20,000 nt of DNA from an uncultured virus (IMG/VR IMGVR_UViG_3300019885_000016) (IMGVR_UViG_3300019885_000016); one strand, 5' to 3'. Counted from the first letter of the stretch, positions 1 through 19,302 are shown. Program-made: numbers and translations. The notes: generated by a model not told the origin, from the letters alone.

Positions 1-1695
1 CGAAGTGAAACCGGATACAGCATGCAGGTTGAACCCGTCGAAAGAGCAAGACACTTCCTTGATGTGGTTGAATACGGTCATATCTATTTAGACCAGGAAG
101 AAACTCTGCCTAACGGCAAGAAGTTGGAGGCAGGAAAACTACTTGGAGAGCATTTTCCCGAAGGCATGTACTTTAATTTTGTGGGAGATACGTTAGTAGA
201 AGTCGAGCCAGTGAAGAAGAGAAGGAAGTGGTCTCTGGTTCGATATGGGAAGAAGGCAGGTACACATCGAGGAACAGGGATGCAGATTGGTATTCCAATG
301 CAGGATGTCATTGACGACTCGTTTAATTTAACTTACGCCACCGGCATGACTGTCGGGCATCCGCTCACGATAGTTAATCGCAAGTTTGCGCCTGAATTGC
401 CGGATGCGAACAATATGCTATTCGTGAATAATTCGGAGGTGGATGTCAATAAGGTCGCTACAAGAATCTCAGGAGGAGCAGTGTCAAGTGTTGTGGATTC
501 CACTGCTGAACGTGTGGAAGGGGCGTTGCAGTTCATTCTTGGGACTCAGAGTGTCATTGGTACGGTCGGGGCACCGGACGCAAGGCAGGCGATGGGCACG
601 GCCACTGCCGTCACCGCGACGGTTGAAAACGCAGCGCTTCGGATGACTGGCCCCATCGGACAAAGAGTAGCGGCAGAGAAGGAATTGAGATTCCAGATTT
701 TAGAGAACATTAAGGAGCATTCAGCGCCTGAGCAAATCAAAGAGTTGGAGAGAAGATTCGGCCCCGACACGGTTGCGTCTTTTAGAAAGTGTGGCTTTCG
801 TCTTGACCTGACTATTAAAGTTGTGCCGAACACGGACAGACCACGCTCAATGGCTTTGACTCAATCTACTCTGATGGCGCTGGGTCAGATGGCTCCTGCG
901 CTGGCGAATGTTCCCTGGGGCGGGGAGTTACTGTCAATAATGGGAGATGTTGCCGGAATCCCCCTAGACATCGGCCCCGGTCGTGTTGATAGAAGAGAAG
1001 CCGAGTATCGTCTGAATAAGTTGTCGGCAATCGTCGAAAGAATCCAAGCAAAAGACTCTGCGTACTTGGCAAACTCAGAACAAGCGGCAGTAGAGATTTA
1101 CAACATGCTTGCCAGATTCTGCGGGCCGCTGATTCAGACGGAAAGTCCTGCTTCAATGTTCATGCAAGATCATCAATCTTTCATGGATGTTTATAAAGAC
1201 GCTCTTCTGGGAGAAGAGGCCAAGATGTGGCCGGATGCTCAGAAACTCGTAGTTATTCAATTATGGATGGATCACTTCAATGAGCAAATGACTGGCGAGG
1301 CTAAGAAGGCTGAGATGGCAAAAGAGGTGCAGGACAAGATTACGCCACCTCCACCGGAGCCTTCCCTGCCACAGAAGATTGCCGAAGGGCTGTCAATCAA
1401 ATACACCGACCTGGCGGCTGCTCCTTCACCTTTGCAGGCTCAGGTTCTGCAACTTGCTGGCTTGCAGGTCGAACCCGCGCAAGCGAGCGACCAGACAAGC
1501 AGCGACGGTCAGAATACGCTCGTACAGAGTGCTGTGGAGCATGAAGCAGGGGAAGAGTCTAAGGATACGGACGTAGAAAGACAGATGGCCTTGAATGAGC
1601 ACCAACACCACTTGGATGAAGAGGCCAAAGATAACCAGATGCACCGTGATTTAGCTAAGCAGGCGCACAGCGCACAGCAGAATGGAGGGGCATGA
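1..1695 (+). CDS. Phage portal protein (podovirus P22/T7-like), 5'-truncated by the window edge
   Basis: The frame is open from base 1, so the gene starts upstream. Portal-like segments are PMQDVIDDSFN and GTATAVTATVENAALRM...ELRFQILENIKEH, followed by a long Q/E/A-rich helical C-terminus. It lies upstream of the scaffold and capsid genes. Confidence 0.8.
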   Translation, partial: RSETGYSMQVEPVERARHFLDVVEYGHIYLDQEETLPNGKKLEAGKLLGEHFPEGMYFNFVGDTLVEVEPVKKRRKWSLVRYGKKAGTHRGTGMQIGIPMQDVIDDSFNLTYATGMTVGHPLTIVNRKFAPELPDANNMLFVNNSEVDVNKVATRISGGAVSSVVDSTAERVEGALQFILGTQSVIGTVGAPDARQAMGTATAVTATVENAALRMTGPIGQRVAAEKELRFQILENIKEHSAPEQIKELERRFGPDTVASFRKCGFRLDLTIKVVPNTDRPRSMALTQSTLMALGQMAPALANVPWGGELLSIMGDVAGIPLDIGPGRVDRREAEYRLNKLSAIVERIQAKDSAYLANSEQAAVEIYNMLARFCGPLIQTESPASMFMQDHQSFMDVYKDALLGEEAKMWPDAQKLVVIQLWMDHFNEQMTGEAKKAEMAKEVQDKITPPPPEPSLPQKIAEGLSIKYTDLAAAPSPLQAQVLQLAGLQVEPAQASDQTSSDGQNTLVQSAVEHEAGEESKDTDVERQMALNEHQHHLDEEAKDNQMHRDLAKQAHSAQQNGGA

Positions 1696-1982
1696 TGAAG
1701 GTCAGATTTGTAGGTGGCTCTTTAGATGGCGAAGAATGTGATTCGCCTGATGCAGGCTCGCCATTGCTTAACATCCCTGTGGCTCGGGCAGAGAAGATTA
1801 AGCCTGTGGACGAGGCATTGACCGATGCGGTAAGGAGTCTCAACGGGGAATATACATGCCCACACTATGACATTGAAAGTTATAGCTTAAATGGAAAAGA
1901 AGGCGATGCGCTGATTTATACCTACGCGCATACTCAACTATTCCTAGACCAAGAGGAGAATGGAGACGGAATCAATGAATAA
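1692..1982 (+). CDS. Small hypothetical phage protein (96 aa; N-terminal FVGGSLDG motif)
   Basis: ATGA overlap with the portal stop and GGAGGGG upstream. The xFxGGxxDG N-terminus is common in small phage proteins. Confidence 0.75.
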   Translation: MMKVRFVGGSLDGEECDSPDAGSPLLNIPVARAEKIKPVDEALTDAVRSLNGEYTCPHYDIESYSLNGKEGDALIYTYAHTQLFLDQEENGDGINE

Positions 1983-2211
1983 AAATAAATCTCGACTTTG
2001 GCAAATGCAATTTGGCGTTCCTCGTCCAACTGAGGCTGAGCCGGACAAGTGGGTTATGGAGTGGCGGAATGTAAGCGCGCCTTCTATGAAAGAAGCGATG
2101 GAAATTATTGAGCAGGAGTATGAAGGCGCATACTTTTTCGGAATAAATGAAAGAGGGACTATAGACTACGCATTCGCAGTAGCAGAGGGTGGCCCGATGC
2201 TTAGACACTGA
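1975..2211 (+). CDS. Small hypothetical protein (78 aa) whose C-terminus matches a major-capsid peptide
   Basis: The track ORF is 1960..2211. ATG 1975 is preferred because GGAG at 1962-1965 gives a normal SD spacing. It overlaps the previous stop and ends ...YAFAVAEGGPMLRH. Confidence 0.75.
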   Translation: MNKNKSRLWQMQFGVPRPTEAEPDKWVMEWRNVSAPSMKEAMEIIEQEYEGAYFFGINERGTIDYAFAVAEGGPMLRH

Positions 2212-2285
2212 TTGTATAGATGCTTGAAGAGAAGTAGATAACATGCACAAGGTTAAAACTGATGGGATGGCTATGAGAGGTAAAA

Positions 2286-2654
2286 ATGAGAATTCATCAT
2301 CTGCATGTGTGGGTTCGTCTTGGTGGGAATGGCGATAGTTTGATGTGTTCATCGTGCTCTGCTGGCATCCACAGAGCGCGGGATGGCAGTCATGGTTATG
2401 AGCTTTCGTCGACAGCATGTCGCAGGCTTACGGTTGAGCATGCACTTCAGTGTCTTGAACGAAAAGAGCGCCCCACAACCCAAGCGGCACTCAGGTTTGT
2501 AGAAGCGACGAAAGAGGCAATGAAGAAGGAACTAAGACACCGCGTTCATCTAGCAGGAAAGCCCCGCTATTCAAGAAATCTCCGGCGAGCCTTATTAGTG
2601 GTAGAGAAAAACATTTATCGTACCGACACACTTGGAAGGTATGTTTATTCTTAA
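2286..2654 (+). CDS. Hypothetical basic protein (122 aa) with CxxC and a further Cys, possibly Zn/nucleic-acid binding
   Basis: GAGAGGT precedes the ATG. Contains CSSC...HR...CRR and an R/K-rich C-terminal half. Confidence 0.65.
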   Translation: MRIHHLHVWVRLGGNGDSLMCSSCSAGIHRARDGSHGYELSSTACRRLTVEHALQCLERKERPTTQAALRFVEATKEAMKKELRHRVHLAGKPRYSRNLRRALLVVEKNIYRTDTLGRYVYS

Positions 2655-2666
2655 ACCGATAAAGGA

Positions 2667-2840
2667 ATGTCTAGCGTTCGGCATCTAAAAAAAGATAGCA
2701 TTCCACCACAAACTTGTAGTAAGATTAACTTGGTGGAAGAGGTTGACCGTCTGACCCGCGAGGTTCACACGGTTACACACCAACTCTCCACCATCACCAA
2801 GCGGCTTTTTGATTTGAAAGAACAGATCAAGAAGTCCTAA
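2667..2840 (+). CDS. Small coiled-coil hypothetical protein (57 aa; below the ORF-track cut-off)
   Basis: Translated by hand: MSSVRHLKKDSIPPQTCSKINLVEEVDRLTREVHTVTHQLSTITKRLFDLKEQIKKS*. The C-terminal half has a heptad pattern and the ORF fills the gap in the operon. The start codon is uncertain. Confidence 0.5.
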   Translation: MSSVRHLKKDSIPPQTCSKINLVEEVDRLTREVHTVTHQLSTITKRLFDLKEQIKKS

Positions 2841-2889
2841 CTTAATAGAGCTAAGTTCTTAAAAAGAACCCGCTCACCAACGGACTACT

Positions 2890-2954
2890 AAGCCCGCTGG
2901 CTACAGAGTCAAGTGACACGAGATGTCACCCGCTCTGAGGTCAGCGGGCTTTTT
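2890..2954 (+). promoter_or_regulatory. Long interrupted RNA hairpin with a T-tract directly upstream of the scaffold start (terminator/attenuator or translational control element)
   Basis: Nested stems are AAGCCCGCTGGCT/GGTCAGCGGGCTT, CAGAG/CTCTG and GTGACA-CGAGA-TGTCAC. TTTTT follows at 2950-2954 and the ATG is at 2960. Confidence 0.6.
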
Positions 2955-2959
2955 CGTTT

Positions 2960-4261
2960 ATGTCAACAAATTTAGAAACACCAGCCGAAGATTTCCTTTC
3001 TTCGGTCGCAGACTTCGGAATTGACTCTCAACCGGAAGAGGTTAGCCCTCTGCCAGCAAACGCCACCGAGGAAGCTGGCGACGCTGTGCAGAGCGAGCAG
3101 GCCAAAGGCGAAGAGCAGTTGGAAGTCGCAGCCACTGAGAGCGGGCAACCTCAAGAGGTCAAGGCAGAGCCGGTTAAGGCCGAAGAAGCTAAGATTGAAG
3201 AGAAGCCCGCAGAAGAGTCTCAAGAAGCTAAGGCTGCGAGACCTAGCTTCTGGGATCACTTCATCTCGTCACAGCCCATCGGGGAAATCCTCGACCACAT
3301 GCAGACACAATCCCCTTCCCGTTACGGCGAGATGGAGACGGAAGTCTTGGGTCGAAGGCTTGCAGACCCCGCTAAATTTGCTCTTTCGCACTACGAGCGA
3401 GACCCGGAAGGCTATGGCCGACAGTCTCTCGCTTACTACGAGGTGGCGAAGGATTTCTACCGCCAACAGGTCATAAAAGACAACCCTGACATTCAGGCCG
3501 CTCTCACCTTCCACGAAAAATATAAAGACAGTGTGAAGGAGGAGGACGACTTTGAATTGACCTCTGACATTGAAGAGGACATCCGCGCGCTCCACGACCC
3601 CGCAGTTGCCGAAAGGATGATTAAACGTCTGAAGGCAACGAGCGAGAAGAAGCCGGAAGAGCCTAAGACGGAGACGCCCAAGAGCGAGGAGGTCAAAAAG
3701 CCAGCAGCACAACCACCAGACGAAGCTATCCAAACAGAGATTAAGGCGACTCTGGACGCTGGCTACAACGAACTCTTCTTCTATCTCGGCTCAAAAGCGG
3801 ATGACCCCAAACAGTTAGGGTTGAAGGTCACACCGGAAGAGCGCGAGCGTGCGCCGGAAGTTGCCGACCTGAAGGACTTCAAGCGCCACGTTCTGTTCGA
3901 TGCTTACGGCGACCTTCCGGACTTCGAGCGGGGATTGTTTGAGTGGGCGAAGGAGAGGGATATCAATGGAGTCAAATTCATAGATGCCTTCGACGACTGG
4001 AAGAAGTTCGCAGTGGCGCGCGAGAAGCCGAACGCAATCGCAGCCGCGAAGAAGATGATTCCCTTCGCCGACCAGTACATGGGTGAACGGTTGAAGAACC
4101 CAATCTTTGCTCGGATAGACAAGCAGATTCAGGCGGCAATCCAGGCGGTAAATCCCACACAGAAAACAGAGAATTTCACTCCGGGGACACTCAAGACGGT
4201 CTCGCAGCCCGCAAGCCCCGAAACCGCCTTCTTTGATGAGGCGGCAAACTACGGACTTTAA
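2960..4261 (+). CDS. Putative capsid scaffolding protein (433 aa)
   Basis: Very acidic, low-complexity E/K/P/A N-terminus and a helical body. It lies immediately before the capsid gene. Confidence 0.6.
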   Translation: MSTNLETPAEDFLSSVADFGIDSQPEEVSPLPANATEEAGDAVQSEQAKGEEQLEVAATESGQPQEVKAEPVKAEEAKIEEKPAEESQEAKAARPSFWDHFISSQPIGEILDHMQTQSPSRYGEMETEVLGRRLADPAKFALSHYERDPEGYGRQSLAYYEVAKDFYRQQVIKDNPDIQAALTFHEKYKDSVKEEDDFELTSDIEEDIRALHDPAVAERMIKRLKATSEKKPEEPKTETPKSEEVKKPAAQPPDEAIQTEIKATLDAGYNELFFYLGSKADDPKQLGLKVTPEERERAPEVADLKDFKRHVLFDAYGDLPDFERGLFEWAKERDINGVKFIDAFDDWKKFAVAREKPNAIAAAKKMIPFADQYMGERLKNPIFARIDKQIQAAIQAVNPTQKTENFTPGTLKTVSQPASPETAFFDEAANYGL

Positions 4262-4270
4262 GGAGACATC

Positions 4271-5623
4271 ATGGCTTCCTCAATCACGACTACTACGATT
4301 AACGGCATCCTTCCGAAGCTAATCGAGAAGGGCAGAAACCTACAGGTGGCTCAATCCCGCTTCTTTCAGGAGATGGAGAAGGTCAAGAAGATTAACAAGA
4401 TTAACCCCGGCGGACTCTACACACCGTACCAGACGGGTGAGAACAACATGGCCTTCGCCGTCGCTGAAGGCGGGCCGATTCTATCAGGCGGAGCGCCCTC
4501 TTATGCAATGGGCGTTACACAGTTGAGGCAGCACTGGGCTTCGATTGCATGGACTGGAGCGCTTGAGAGAATCAAGAACGAATTTCTCACTGAAGTCGCG
4601 CAGGACTCCCGGTATGCGGGCGAGGGCATGCCGAAGCTAATGCAGCGCGCCGGAAATATGGCCGTTGGCGCAGTCATCTACTCAGCCCTGAAGATGTACG
4701 CAAGGCGTGAAAATTTCTTTGCATTGCAGGGCACTGATAAGAGTGCGATAGGCATCATCACTGGGTTACCGGGCGGCAACGTCATCCAGTGTTCGTGGGA
4801 CTCTACGAATCAAGGAAACCGTCTATTCGATGCTGACCAGCAGGTGCAAATCTTCTCCCCCGGTGGAGTACAGAGAACCACAGGATTAGCCACAGTAGGC
4901 TCATCCCTCTACAACACGGTTCTGAGTGTTGATAAGACTCCCGCTTCGGGAGACACCGGGCCGGTAACCTTCTCGGAAGCACCTCCTTCAAATGCGGACG
5001 TTGGCGATACCGTTGTGTTCCGCAACTCCTACGGGCTGATGCCACAGGGCTTCATCCATTACGTGGATGATACGGGAACGTTCAAAGGAATCACTCGCTC
5101 GACGAACCCGGCGATCTTCAATTCCGTCATTACTAGACTGTCAGGCTCGCCCACAATCAGCCCGGCTCATATACGTGAACAATTATCACAGATGGAGTCG
5201 AAGGCTGGCTACGGAGTTCCTTTGAACCTGCAAATCTGGTGGTCGAAGACCCAGGAGTTCAACTGGGAGAGTCAGTTGTACACGACTCCGTTTGTTCGAC
5301 AGGTGGACGCTTCCAAAGTCGGACGAGTTGATCTGGCTCCGGGTGAAAGTTACTGGGATGGTCACAAGTTTATGGGTGACCAGGATGTTCCTCCCGGCCA
5401 TGTTGATTTCATCAACATGCTTAGTTGGAGAAAGGTCACACAGACTCCACTTCAGCCTTACGAGTTTGACGGCGGTAGTTATGTCGTGAACCCGATCAAC
5501 TCTTATGGAGAGAGACTAGACCAGCGACAGTCAACCGTCTTCAGCGAGTACAACTGGGACTGCGACGACCCGCGAACAAATGGACGTATCGAGGGCGCAG
5601 CATTTAATCGGATCCATGTGTGA
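4271..5623 (+). CDS. Major capsid protein, HK97 fold (450 aa)
   Basis: Strong SD AAGGAG. It has an E-loop-type AFAVAEGGP segment, a backbone helix ending RRENFFALQG, a beta-rich insertion, PQGFIHYVDD and a C-terminal CDDPRTNGRIEG strand. It follows the scaffold gene. Confidence 0.85.
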   Translation: MASSITTTTINGILPKLIEKGRNLQVAQSRFFQEMEKVKKINKINPGGLYTPYQTGENNMAFAVAEGGPILSGGAPSYAMGVTQLRQHWASIAWTGALERIKNEFLTEVAQDSRYAGEGMPKLMQRAGNMAVGAVIYSALKMYARRENFFALQGTDKSAIGIITGLPGGNVIQCSWDSTNQGNRLFDADQQVQIFSPGGVQRTTGLATVGSSLYNTVLSVDKTPASGDTGPVTFSEAPPSNADVGDTVVFRNSYGLMPQGFIHYVDDTGTFKGITRSTNPAIFNSVITRLSGSPTISPAHIREQLSQMESKAGYGVPLNLQIWWSKTQEFNWESQLYTTPFVRQVDASKVGRVDLAPGESYWDGHKFMGDQDVPPGHVDFINMLSWRKVTQTPLQPYEFDGGSYVVNPINSYGERLDQRQSTVFSEYNWDCDDPRTNGRIEGAAFNRIHV

Positions 5624-8823: not shown

Positions 8824-9540
8824 ATGGCGTACGCTGACCCCACAAGGATGTACAACCACATTCTTGACATCTTGAACGCAGCCGCCGAAGGCGCGTGGGG
8901 TGGAGATGTCTCTGACGGGCGAAGGTCGCAGGATGCCATTGAAAACGCAAGAATTCAGTCGGGCATGGAAGTCTTACGCGCCATCTCAATGAATCCTGAG
9001 AACGGTCATTACGGCGCGCTTGTTCAAGATATTGCTGTAGAGCATAACACACAGATTCCAGACCATGACGGGGAGACAGGCATTCCAAAGATAGTTCCCT
9101 TTGACGGAAGCGCTGCAAGAGAGGGAATCCCGGCAGACCCGGACGAGATTGATTCTTACCGCAACGATACGCTGGGGCTTTATTCGGCGGCATTGGATGG
9201 CACATCGGTTCTACACGACCAGCCGGATCAGAACAATCTGCCATCGCCCGTTTCTTTGAAATATTCGATTGTCGCGGGAAGGTTCAAGTTCACCGGACTC
9301 TCAGCAGTCATTCCCATGATCCAGTTAACCCGTGAGATGGCCGATGCGCAGATTCCAGAAAACTATGAGCCAACGGTGGTCAAGCTTTCAATCGCCAAAA
9401 CGGTTAAAGAAGGCGATAACCTCTATCAATATGCTCAGGCATACGCACAGGCTGGACAACAGGATTTGATGCAGATAATGAGCGGGGCGCTACAGGTTAG
9501 CCCCGTTCCAGAGATAGCAATGGCTCAGAAAAACCTCTAA
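8824..9540 (+). CDS. Putative adaptor/ring-like virion protein 2 (238 aa)
   Basis: Abuts the previous gene. It has N-terminal helices and a C-terminal IPENYEPTVVKLSIAK helix motif analogous to adaptor 1. Confidence 0.45.
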   Translation: MAYADPTRMYNHILDILNAAAEGAWGGDVSDGRRSQDAIENARIQSGMEVLRAISMNPENGHYGALVQDIAVEHNTQIPDHDGETGIPKIVPFDGSAAREGIPADPDEIDSYRNDTLGLYSAALDGTSVLHDQPDQNNLPSPVSLKYSIVAGRFKFTGLSAVIPMIQLTREMADAQIPENYEPTVVKLSIAKTVKEGDNLYQYAQAYAQAGQQDLMQIMSGALQVSPVPEIAMAQKNL

Positions 9541-13070: not shown

Positions 13071-13619
13071 TTAAGATGGAACAAGTTCAGCAACAAGTGA
13101 ATTACGAAGGGCGTGGATTGCGCTTGCCTCGCATCTCGTATCTGTCCGTATGTATCCGCCATCTGCATGGTGTATGTAAGCGGTTTCACCTAGCGGGACG
13201 AGGTCAGACACAGCAGAGCCGATTAGAGGCGCGGGCGATGCGTGCCGACAATATCCGCACATCGCCTTTGCTGCTTCTTTGTAGGCTTCATCTTTTGCAG
13301 TGTGGATTATCTGCTCTGCTGTTAGGAAGCCAGAAATTGAGCCGTTTTCATCGCGCAAGGCGAATGTCTGTAAGCCTTGTGGCACTCGTCCGTAGGAGTT
13401 GTTTGAGTCGTTTGCCATGGGGTACTCCACGCTTGGAAAGCATTCGCGCATTTGCGGAGTCAACGCAGGGGCGATCTCTAAAACTTCCTTTCCACGAAAC
13501 ATTACATATATCTGATTGGGAAAGGTGTCAGTCAATGGTTGTCCTCTCTCTACGTCTACGAGGGTTGCGTATTCGGATGGCTCAAGGCGCAGCAACGTTA
13601 CTTCCACTTCGTTAGTCAT
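13071..13619 (-). CDS. Inverted (moron-like) hypothetical protein, 182 aa, with C-terminal CxxC...H...C motif
   Basis: Protein-like composition with EAAKAMCGYCR...IHH...RCEASAI. It has a consensus promoter upstream, and its stop abuts the nozzle stop (CTTAATTAAG). Confidence 0.7.
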   Translation of the reverse strand: MTNEVEVTLLRLEPSEYATLVDVERGQPLTDTFPNQIYVMFRGKEVLEIAPALTPQMRECFPSVEYPMANDSNNSYGRVPQGLQTFALRDENGSISGFLTAEQIIHTAKDEAYKEAAKAMCGYCRHASPAPLIGSAVSDLVPLGETAYIHHADGGYIRTDTRCEASAIHALRNSLVAELVPS

Positions 13620-13638: not shown

Positions 13639-14253
13639 ATGCCACTTCAACCTCCAACAATAGACGTAGAGATGGCGCAGCGTAGAGCAGGCGCGACAGA
13701 AGAAGAGGTGTCTCAATTCTCCGCTCCACGCTCTGCGACAACCGTTACAGGTGACTTCACCGTGGGGACTCGCACAGAGAGACTATCTGCGGTGAATCTG
13801 CAATCAGGCGACAGGTGGCTTGAAAGTGACACGGGTTGGGTCTATCGCTACACGGGAACTGCGTGGGCGTGGGCGTGGGGTCTCTATAAAGGAACTGATG
13901 CGCAACGAGGTGCAATCGCTCCCGCAGCAGCAGACAACGGAGCAGAGTTCTTAACTACTGACACGACTCCAAGAAAGTTCTATCGAGTGAGCGCAACAGC
14001 GTGGACACTTGTCGGGGTTTTATTGAATGCTCAAGGTGCTGCCGTTACCGACTATGCCGACAATATCGCGGGGACTGTATCAGACACGTTAGCGGCTATT
14101 CCAGACCCTGCGGATGCGCCCGTAGATGCGGATGCTTTAAGAGAAGACTTGGTGACGAATGTGTTGCCGAAGATTCGTTCTGCAATTTCAAGCATAGCGT
14201 CAAAGCAGAATACGGAGAGGTCAAGATTAAGAGGGGCAGGAGTAATAGCTTGA
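13639..14253 (+). CDS. Short fibre/needle-like virion protein (204 aa)
   Basis: Two copies of a fibre repeat (GTxxxR...G..[WF]LxxDT...YR....W) and a head-fibre-like C-terminal helix ending LRGAGVIA. It sits in the P22 gp26 slot between nozzle and GNAT. Confidence 0.55.
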   Translation: MPLQPPTIDVEMAQRRAGATEEEVSQFSAPRSATTVTGDFTVGTRTERLSAVNLQSGDRWLESDTGWVYRYTGTAWAWAWGLYKGTDAQRGAIAPAAADNGAEFLTTDTTPRKFYRVSATAWTLVGVLLNAQGAAVTDYADNIAGTVSDTLAAIPDPADAPVDADALREDLVTNVLPKIRSAISSIASKQNTERSRLRGAGVIA

Positions 14254-14597
14254 TTCGATTACTCGCAGAGGAAGAGAGAGGACAGGCGGAAGCCTTACAA
14301 AGAGAGTTCGCATCCTGCGGCGCGCTCTCATCTTCGTCTTCGATTGTGGGCGCGTTTACAGATGGTGAGTTGATTGCTCTCTTGGGCGTTGATTCTCTCG
14401 TCTTTCTCGGCCCACTGATTGTTAAAAAGGAGTGGAGAGGTAGGCAGCTTCCGGTTCAATTGGTTGAGTACGTTAAAGAGAGAGTACCTGAGAGAAAGCG
14501 GGTCTGTATTTATACGGATAACCCACACGTCAAGAAGTTGGCTGAAGAGTTCGGCATGAAACGCATGCCCGGCGAATTTTATATGGTTGAGGTGTAA
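14250..14597 (+). CDS. GNAT-fold acetyltransferase-like protein (115 aa; P22 gp14 / T7 gp13 position)
   Basis: Start moved to TTG 14250 (TTGA overlap, AGGAG upstream). GNAT motif A is LIVKKEWRGRQL and motif B is NPHVKKLAEEFGMK. Confidence 0.75.
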   Translation: MIRLLAEEERGQAEALQREFASCGALSSSSSIVGAFTDGELIALLGVDSLVFLGPLIVKKEWRGRQLPVQLVEYVKERVPERKRVCIYTDNPHVKKLAEEFGMKRMPGEFYMVEV

Positions 14598-19134: not shown

Positions 19135-19302
19135 CTACTTTAGACGCCAGCTTGAAAGCGCTGGCGCTGATGCTGCGGATTCATCCCCCGCATGAATGCG
19201 GCGGTCTTCTCCGAAGTTTTGATAAAACATATTTGTTGATTCACGGATGAGGATACAACGGTATTTCTCTCCATTGGGGTGAGTGTAGATAAGTTCTTGC
19301 AT
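19135..19302 (-). CDS. Small hypothetical protein (55 aa; below the ORF-track cut-off)
   Basis: Translated by hand: MQELIYTHPNGEKYRCILIRESTNMFYQNFGEDRRIHAGDESAASAPALSSWRLK*. It starts 5 nt after the J-domain gene stop and has no clear SD. Confidence 0.4.
   Translation of the reverse strand: MQELIYTHPNGEKYRCILIRESTNMFYQNFGEDRRIHAGDESAASAPALSSWRLK

Follow-up and report, generated by a model that had tools for sequence, protein, structure and literature searches.

Do phages carry copies of pieces of their own virion proteins on small accessory genes, and if so, what would keep them there? This question is raised by a window of 20,000 nucleotides (the whole stretch of DNA analysed here) from the uncultured virus IMGVR_UViG_3300019885_000016, part of a 284-kb soil-metagenome contig of a tailed phage, whose head and tail region it covers. 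Between its presumed portal and scaffold genes lie four small open reading frames (ORFs a to d), each ending in a peptide that resembles a virion protein, and the original prediction read them as an organised, late-expressed cassette of decoys or assembly tags. The window appears to hold one real graft (ORF b), which is independently replicated in a relative, and likely a second mosaic gene, and no conserved cassette was found.

ORF b ends in a capsid-like peptide

ORF b (1975-2211, plus strand) encodes 78 amino acids (aa), a folded core of about 65 aa followed by a capsid-like tail. The peptide AFAVAEGGP was confirmed at 2170 in ORF b and at 4451 in the capsid gene, and the match grows to 10 of 11 residues (2170-2202) when the adjoining M/I and L positions are included. 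The gene for the 450-aa major capsid protein (4271-5623, plus strand) was assigned to the HK97 fold by its structural model (predicted local distance difference test, pLDDT, 80.9) and by fold match, the best structure being 7f38_A (Z 21.1, root-mean-square deviation 4.7, 296 aligned residues) and nearly all of the best 50 matches being capsids or encapsulins. In this model, capsid residues 61-71 (4451-4483, plus strand) lie in the loop between strands 49-56 and 77-83, which by HK97 topology would be the tip of the E-loop. The capsid protein has at least 65 homologues, and the 61-71 motif is family-wide, ranking as the 15th most conserved of 440 11-residue windows across 44 sequences. Within the 20,000 nucleotides it is limited to ORF b and the capsid gene.

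The strength of the four tail matches was measured by comparing the last 20 aa of each gene with the other 24 proteins of the window, with 1000 shuffles each, under PAM30 and BLOSUM62. The observed score of (b) was reached by no shuffle under either matrix; those of (a), (c) and (d) were reached by 21 and 297, 5 and 3, and 205 and 159 shuffles per 1000, respectively. All-vs-all E-values were 6e-4 for (b) and 5.5, 1.0 and 84 for (a), (c) and (d), and restricting the comparison to the four 20-aa tails changed them to 1.4e-5 for (b) and 0.13, 0.024 and 2.0 for the others. In the all-vs-all comparison (b) is the lone outlier, with a score of 68 and the next pair at 46. When 105 small-gene tails of relatives were compared with the core proteins of the window as a null built from real tails, two reached 41 and one reached 46, the latter being itself a capsid graft. 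Matches (b) and (c) had been singled out as strong on their own, which held for (b) (0 of 1000 shuffles) and left (c) as suggestive only (5 of 1000).

One credible homologue of ORF b was found among 1.84 billion representatives (P0068, 41% identity, E 4.4e-7), together with two further matches, one of which reads as a repeat protein. No homologue of ORFs a and b was confirmed in viral contigs, and ORFs a to c had no match in Pfam or PHROGs (PADLOC and NCBIfam were not searched). P0068 ends at the F-A of the match, leaving the rest of the ORF b tail as an extension beyond the core of about 65 residues, and the Atlas structure neighbours of ORF b cover residues 2-63. In the copy, all first and second codon positions (22/22) are identical to those of the phage's own capsid gene, as are 2 of 11 third positions; third positions agree in 2-5 of 11 cases with any of 12 relatives' capsid genes. 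The count of 17 of 21 identical residues in (a) to (c) that use different codons proved correct. The four shared codons compare with 7.15 expected (P=0.10), which matches unrelated synonymous choice, so that the copies keep no DNA memory of their targets; an avoidance of self at the codon level was rejected, as 4 of 21 is within chance. On these comparisons ORF b is very probably a graft of the capsid E-loop tip.

A repeat-spacer array, guide locus or CRISPR-like mini-array was rejected because the matches lack flanking repeats; among the 20 of 29 repeat families listed for 1500-3100, none has more than two copies. A template of the diversity-generating retroelement type was also rejected, the differences not being adenine-specific (4 of 9 in (b) fall at an A of the copy). 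So was an assembly chimera, since Logan contigs from the same soil sample (not an independent one) are identical to the window over 954-2609 and 2423-3010.

The same motif recurs in a Tad1/Acb2-like protein

An independent case was found in the related phage G480, a complete 68-kb genome, in which the gene directly after the capsid gene (L003 1612-2070) opens with the same E-loop motif, matched at 10 of 13 residues. This is the top non-paralogue self-match of the whole genome, and only about 4e-5 second matches to that 13-residue window would be expected among 242 accessory proteins. The protein matches Tad1 structures (8KBB, E 3e-19) and falls below the Pfam cut-off of PF24729, the Tad1/Acb2 family of sponges, with homologues in L012 and L001 above it. 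The family match begins at residue 22-53 and thus excludes the N-terminal capsid peptide. A homologue in G089 (71%) has another N-terminus without the peptide, and homologues located directly after the capsid gene in L001 and L012 do not carry the motif either. ORF b itself is unrelated to the Tad1/Acb2 family.

The G480 case bears on whether all four matches are chance products picked out by a very large scan. Such a reading could draw on the value of only 6e-4 per window for (b) and on all-vs-all values of at least 1 for (a), (c) and (d), but the independent recurrence in G480, and in G077 and L014 (see below), with clean reversed controls, leaves it very improbable. The G480 case largely disposes of chance as an explanation for (b), but chance stands for (d) and probably for (a).

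Virion-protein pieces in other accessory genes

A set of 250 accessory proteins was taken from 16 phage segments (two full-length orthologues excluded). Three of them scored at least 55 against core proteins of their own phage, and no reversed sequence did so. All three, ORF b, the G480 gene and a gene of G077, target capsid residues 10-73. The G077 gene (L019 1498-1707, minus strand) is a twin-arginine-leader-like ORF of 69 aa before the small terminase, and its C-terminal half copies capsid residues 10-39. In profile searches of 252 proteins, with four truncated core genes excluded, three fragments fell below an E-value of 1e-3 and no reversed one did, the best reversed value being 0.029. 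A 125-aa ORF after the capsid gene in L014 (566-943) holds a 39-residue match to capsid 387-425 (E 1.6e-4), and the N-terminal 70 residues of a 130-aa gene in the portal-scaffold slot of G480 (27794-28186, rotated numbering) resemble a 617-aa tail gene (E 1.1e-4), with the best fit to the 617-aa tail genes of the distant relatives G228 and G275. A virion-protein piece is present in about 3% of accessory genes. The pieces sit at either gene end, and several fit distant family members better than the protein of their own phage (16 orthologues or truncations excluded from this comparison).

In six-frame searches, strong capsid matches outside low-complexity sequence were all in frame and in small ORFs, and no strong out-of-frame or antisense copies were found. 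A search for small proteins with the N-terminal 80 residues of the capsid as query gave three matches, all truncated or frameshifted capsid genes, and was insensitive, having missed ORF b and the G077 protein; a loose search of 301 genomes with a capsid N-terminal profile found, beyond true capsids, only the G077 piece. These comparisons show that in-frame pieces resembling virion proteins recur at the ends of accessory genes in this phage family.

From seven family-wide short matches scoring at least 60, a 220-aa gene of G480 was set aside as probably a shared tail-protein domain, and a 168-aa gene of L004 as a charged helix. An 80-aa membrane protein of G228 (L026 5943-6185) shares 9 of 11 residues with the N-terminal motif of a 248-aa adaptor family; that family is absent from its own phage, and the match was also set aside.

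Within the window, the likely second mosaic is a 182-aa gene on the minus strand (13071-13619), in which an insert of about 75 residues lies ahead of a domain that also occurs in the syntenic minus-strand genes of G146 and G480; the insert is absent from the G480 homologue. The coding score of the gene is positive and that of an overlapping plus-strand ORF of 179 aa (called in JGI/ENA) strongly negative, so the latter looks non-coding. The insert holds a portal-like piece (13464-13592) and a capsid-like piece (13329-13403). The portal-like piece scored 45.6 on average against 10 portals from outside the window, compared with a maximum of 32.3 in 503 controls, and its score was reached by 0 of 1000 shuffles, for a sub-region chosen after the fact; that of the capsid-like piece was reached by 1 of 1000. 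Since the family-wide search gave the gene a portal E-value of just 0.013, with one of 20 profiles, the mosaic is considered likely and not certain. The short stretch resembled by (a) is missing from the portal-like piece, a coincidence that counts a little in favour of (a). Elsewhere, a 55-aa ORF (19135-19302, minus strand) begins with 22 residues that bear a weak resemblance to an N-terminal stretch of the portals of relatives (2 of 300 shuffles).

The portal-scaffold slot among relatives

The four peptides and their distances to the stop codons were found as described: beside (b), FLDQEE of ORF a lies at 1941-1958 (portal 82-102), (c) at 2616-2642 (target 9157-9183) and (d) at 2802-2828 (target 4820-4846). 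The four tails do not resemble each other. A comparison of tails with internal windows within the genome, as had been proposed, went in favour of the cassette. For four genes and a tail window picked post hoc, after the matches had been seen, scores of at least 41 were reached by three of four slot tails as against 1 of 30 internal windows of seven accessory genes (P=0.003), by two of three slot tails without (b) (P=0.017), and by none of 17 core-protein tails.

Among nine relatives the outcome was different. The slot turns over almost completely, and the idea that its genes would keep tails matching their cognate virion proteins was not borne out, with 1 of 32 tails at p<=0.02, a zinc-ribbon motif, and none at p<=0.005. 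The gene caller used for relatives was heuristic and missed some slot genes, homologues of ORF d among them, and L008 and G275 are without entries in this survey.

Individually, the genes around ORF b also have more ordinary explanations. ORF a (95-96 aa, 1692-1982, plus strand) belongs to a small phage family whose members in G146, G480 and G228 occupy the same slot, and its coding score is positive. Its homologues end in H-x(4-6) or run on as H-E-S-L-T-L-D. The Y[AG]H ahead of (a), offered as part of the resemblance, is indeed present; Y-x-x-H is the core of the family, hence it is not mimicry. As one homologue also has L-x-L-D, about three residues are left unexplained, and the match of LFLDQEE to the portal is weak and probably explained largely by family residues.

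ORF c (122 aa, 2286-2654, plus strand) is an orphan of uncertain gene status. Its coding score is not distinguishing, it is absent from the protein collection under five starts tried, and no convincing homologue was found, with four weak matches in 251 genomes, two of them with internal stops. Its tail shares 7 of 9 residues with a variable, indel-rich region (9157-9183, plus strand) of a 238-aa presumed adaptor, and its residues 60-82 (2463-2531) resemble scaffold residues 173-195 (BLOSUM62 score 53, the second-best pair of the window). Both fit proteins of this phage only, and since own-only matches are what chance produces, the tail match of ORF c is left as suggestive. ORF d (57 aa, 2667-2840, plus strand) is a coiled-coil-like, conserved gene before the scaffold, with homologues in L005 and G077 that are 57% and 60% identical and have the same tail, and its capsid match is due to chance.

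If the slot were an organised, late-expressed array whose genes each end in a copy of an epitope from a cognate virion protein, this could explain why the tail is the best-scoring window in all four genes here. In addition, (a), (c) and (d) combine to P=0.002 (PAM30) or 0.009 (BLOSUM62) by Fisher's method, and the slot of this phage is unusual in that three of its four tails match, compared with one of 32 among relatives (P=0.002). Yet the nine relatives show no such array, ORF d is simply a conserved gene, match (a) coincides in part with residues of its family, the own-only matches look like chance matches, and both the genes and the tail window were chosen with the matches in view. The rule of C-terminal, cognate copies does not hold in the family either: grafts are N-terminal as often as C-terminal and usually fit non-cognate members as well or better. 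An organised array is therefore very unlikely. The slot is an ordinary fast-turnover moron slot and not a mimic cassette, and the four genes are not worth pursuing as a system. What is left of the mimicry idea applies to ORF b as the only one of the four genes, together with the independent same-peptide case in G480.

Genomic setting

Relatives at 65-81% capsid identity come from soil metagenomes and from genomes titled Acidobacteriota or Pyrinomonadaceae. The core genes of the window had no match in Pfam or PHROGs, and sequence searches of the PDB with portal and adaptor profiles gave none. Among the target labels of the original prediction, that of the capsid was confirmed by its HK97 fold; the portal and adaptor labels, like that of the scaffold, are presumed from gene order. 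The presumed portal is represented by its C-terminal 564 aa (1-1695, plus strand), with 40-49% identity to syntenic genes in seven relatives, where the protein has about 850-890 aa and follows the large terminase. Its model is poor (predicted template modelling score, pTM, 0.28), with a best Z of 7.5 to generic helical hairpins. An inverted repeat with a terminator-like stem (2890-2951; consensus match only) separates the slot from the presumed scaffold (433 aa, 2960-4261, plus strand), which is labelled by position and has syntenic homologues at 30-45%.

Presumed adaptor genes are tandemly duplicated in two relatives (L003 4839-6377 and L004 15284-16713). A GNAT acetyltransferase (PF00583) lies among the tail genes at 14001-14597, with syntenic homologues in relatives, and a giant gene family occurs in three relatives, with 3690 aa in G480 and about 4000 aa in G077 and G146.

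Possible function of the grafts

Phages of this family occasionally add short stretches of virion genes, in frame, to the free ends of their accessory genes. ORF b is very probably such a case, a carrier of 65 aa that ends in the presumed capsid E-loop tip. The pieces may be kept at the protein level, binding what the real capsid loop binds, and the likeliest partner would be a host sensor that reads the conserved motif and that the small protein could occupy without firing it. Retention of the grafts as mimics of immune triggers, or decoys, is the best reading of the sequences, at a probability of roughly 0.4.

Capsid proteins are described as triggers of Avs7/8/10 and, via short motifs, of Lit and CapRel (PMC13581612). 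An E-loop substitution (W84K) lets phage escape the capsid-sensing Sau-Thoeris system (PMC11312562), and a Upx of Pyrinomonadaceae senses terminases (PMC13601566). Lit/Gol, CapRel and Sau-Thoeris ThsB1/B2 thus share with the proposed scheme the capsid protein as immune trigger, but they are host sensors, whereas ORF b would be a candidate phage-side decoy. Sau-Thoeris is proposed to read the hexamer, and the likeness is at the level of the E-loop. On the phage side, the anti-DSR2 protein DSAD1 of SPbeta is described as an accessory protein that mimics the tail tube trigger and occupies the sensor pocket (PMC10973363), and ORF b would work alike. In DSAD1 the whole protein is the mimic and the sensor is known; ORF b has an 11-residue copy on an unrelated carrier, and its resemblance to a trigger (10 of 11 residues of capsid 61-71) is at the sequence level only. 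PF10463 (the Lit family) had no match in 151 genomes of the host family, with the control likewise without a match anywhere, which leaves this negative uninformative. The literature, subscription papers and supplements excluded, gave no account of accessory genes that carry grafted virion peptides.

Selection has somewhat better than even odds of being what keeps the grafts, as suggested by strong matches that are all in frame in small ORFs and by the same window having been taken twice. Alternatively, the pieces could be neutral scars of recombination, in which virion pieces of a related phage landed at moron junctions and persisted, in frame at tolerant ends and without function. Intact first and second codon positions with random third positions would equal a recent capture from a relative at 65-80%, and the better fit of several pieces to distant family members and their presence in some 3% of accessory genes point the same way. 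The lack of strong out-of-frame or antisense copies, the repeated capture of one 13-residue window, and the conservative substitutions around conserved columns in the longer G077 and L014 pieces (cases of a kind that detection favours) argue against scars, which we hold to be rather improbable.

Several observations nonetheless count against decoys. Every graft is a singleton, all clusters having one member, as scars would also have it, and in one IMG/VR lineage an 8-residue version of the motif falls in no gene frame. The codon pattern of ORF b would arise without selection if the piece had been captured from a diverged relative, which the saturated third positions fit equally well. The F-A is common to P0068, so the added part of ORF b may be only about 8 residues. 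As the window was selected for this match out of a very large scan, (b) by itself might be a chance event brought up by that selection, and the case leans on the replication in G480. The analogy with Avs4, as a sensor of portal, that accompanied the original prediction is weak, since Avs sensors are described as enveloping folds, and Lit and CapRel as reading short motifs (PMC13581612); an 11-residue peptide would be a poor decoy for the former. A copy of a trigger might, moreover, activate a sensor rather than block it.

Another possibility is that the peptide acts as a docking tag, replacing the E-loop of a neighbouring subunit and so loading its carrier, such as the Tad1/Acb2-like protein, into or onto the head, or spoiling the assembly of competing relatives. 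T4 internal proteins carry capsid-targeting sequences and satellites encode capsid-interference proteins, and the likeness would lie in a short tag or mimic that engages head assembly. Those systems either put a common tag on many cargoes or mimic whole domains, whereas here differing pieces sit on differing carriers, and no single tag was found across several proteins of the same phage in the window. In favour of docking, the motif is family-wide, the G480 gene directly follows the capsid gene, three of its Bacillus phage homologues are annotated as 'structural protein' (annotation only), and the E-loop is described as holding capsomers together (PMC11312562). However, homologues without the peptide occupy the same post-capsid position in G442 and L012, and a dominant-negative peptide from a late operon would be expected to harm the phage itself. 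Docking is unlikely overall, and if the grafts are selected, decoys are favoured over it by about two to one.

In a wider version of the decoy reading, which is tentative and on balance doubtful, the family would infect Acidobacteria and maintain a rotating decoy stock of conserved virion epitopes on small carriers, including an anti-Thoeris-type sponge. The epitopes would be the capsid E-loop tip, the capsid N-arm, the portal beta-domain and a tail-protein segment, and of these decoys this phage would have ORF b and the 182-aa mosaic, perhaps with ORFs a and c as well. The epitopes read by host sensors would then be charted by the grafted pieces. Even as scars, the grafts would document that morons pick up pieces of neighbouring core genes. 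If they are selected, the attachment of a capsid-loop peptide to a Tad1/Acb2-like protein would give one gene two activities, signal sequestration and either sensor blocking or virion loading, and if they are selected as decoys, self-matches within phage proteomes would offer a cheap map of the virion epitopes that bacterial immunity reads.

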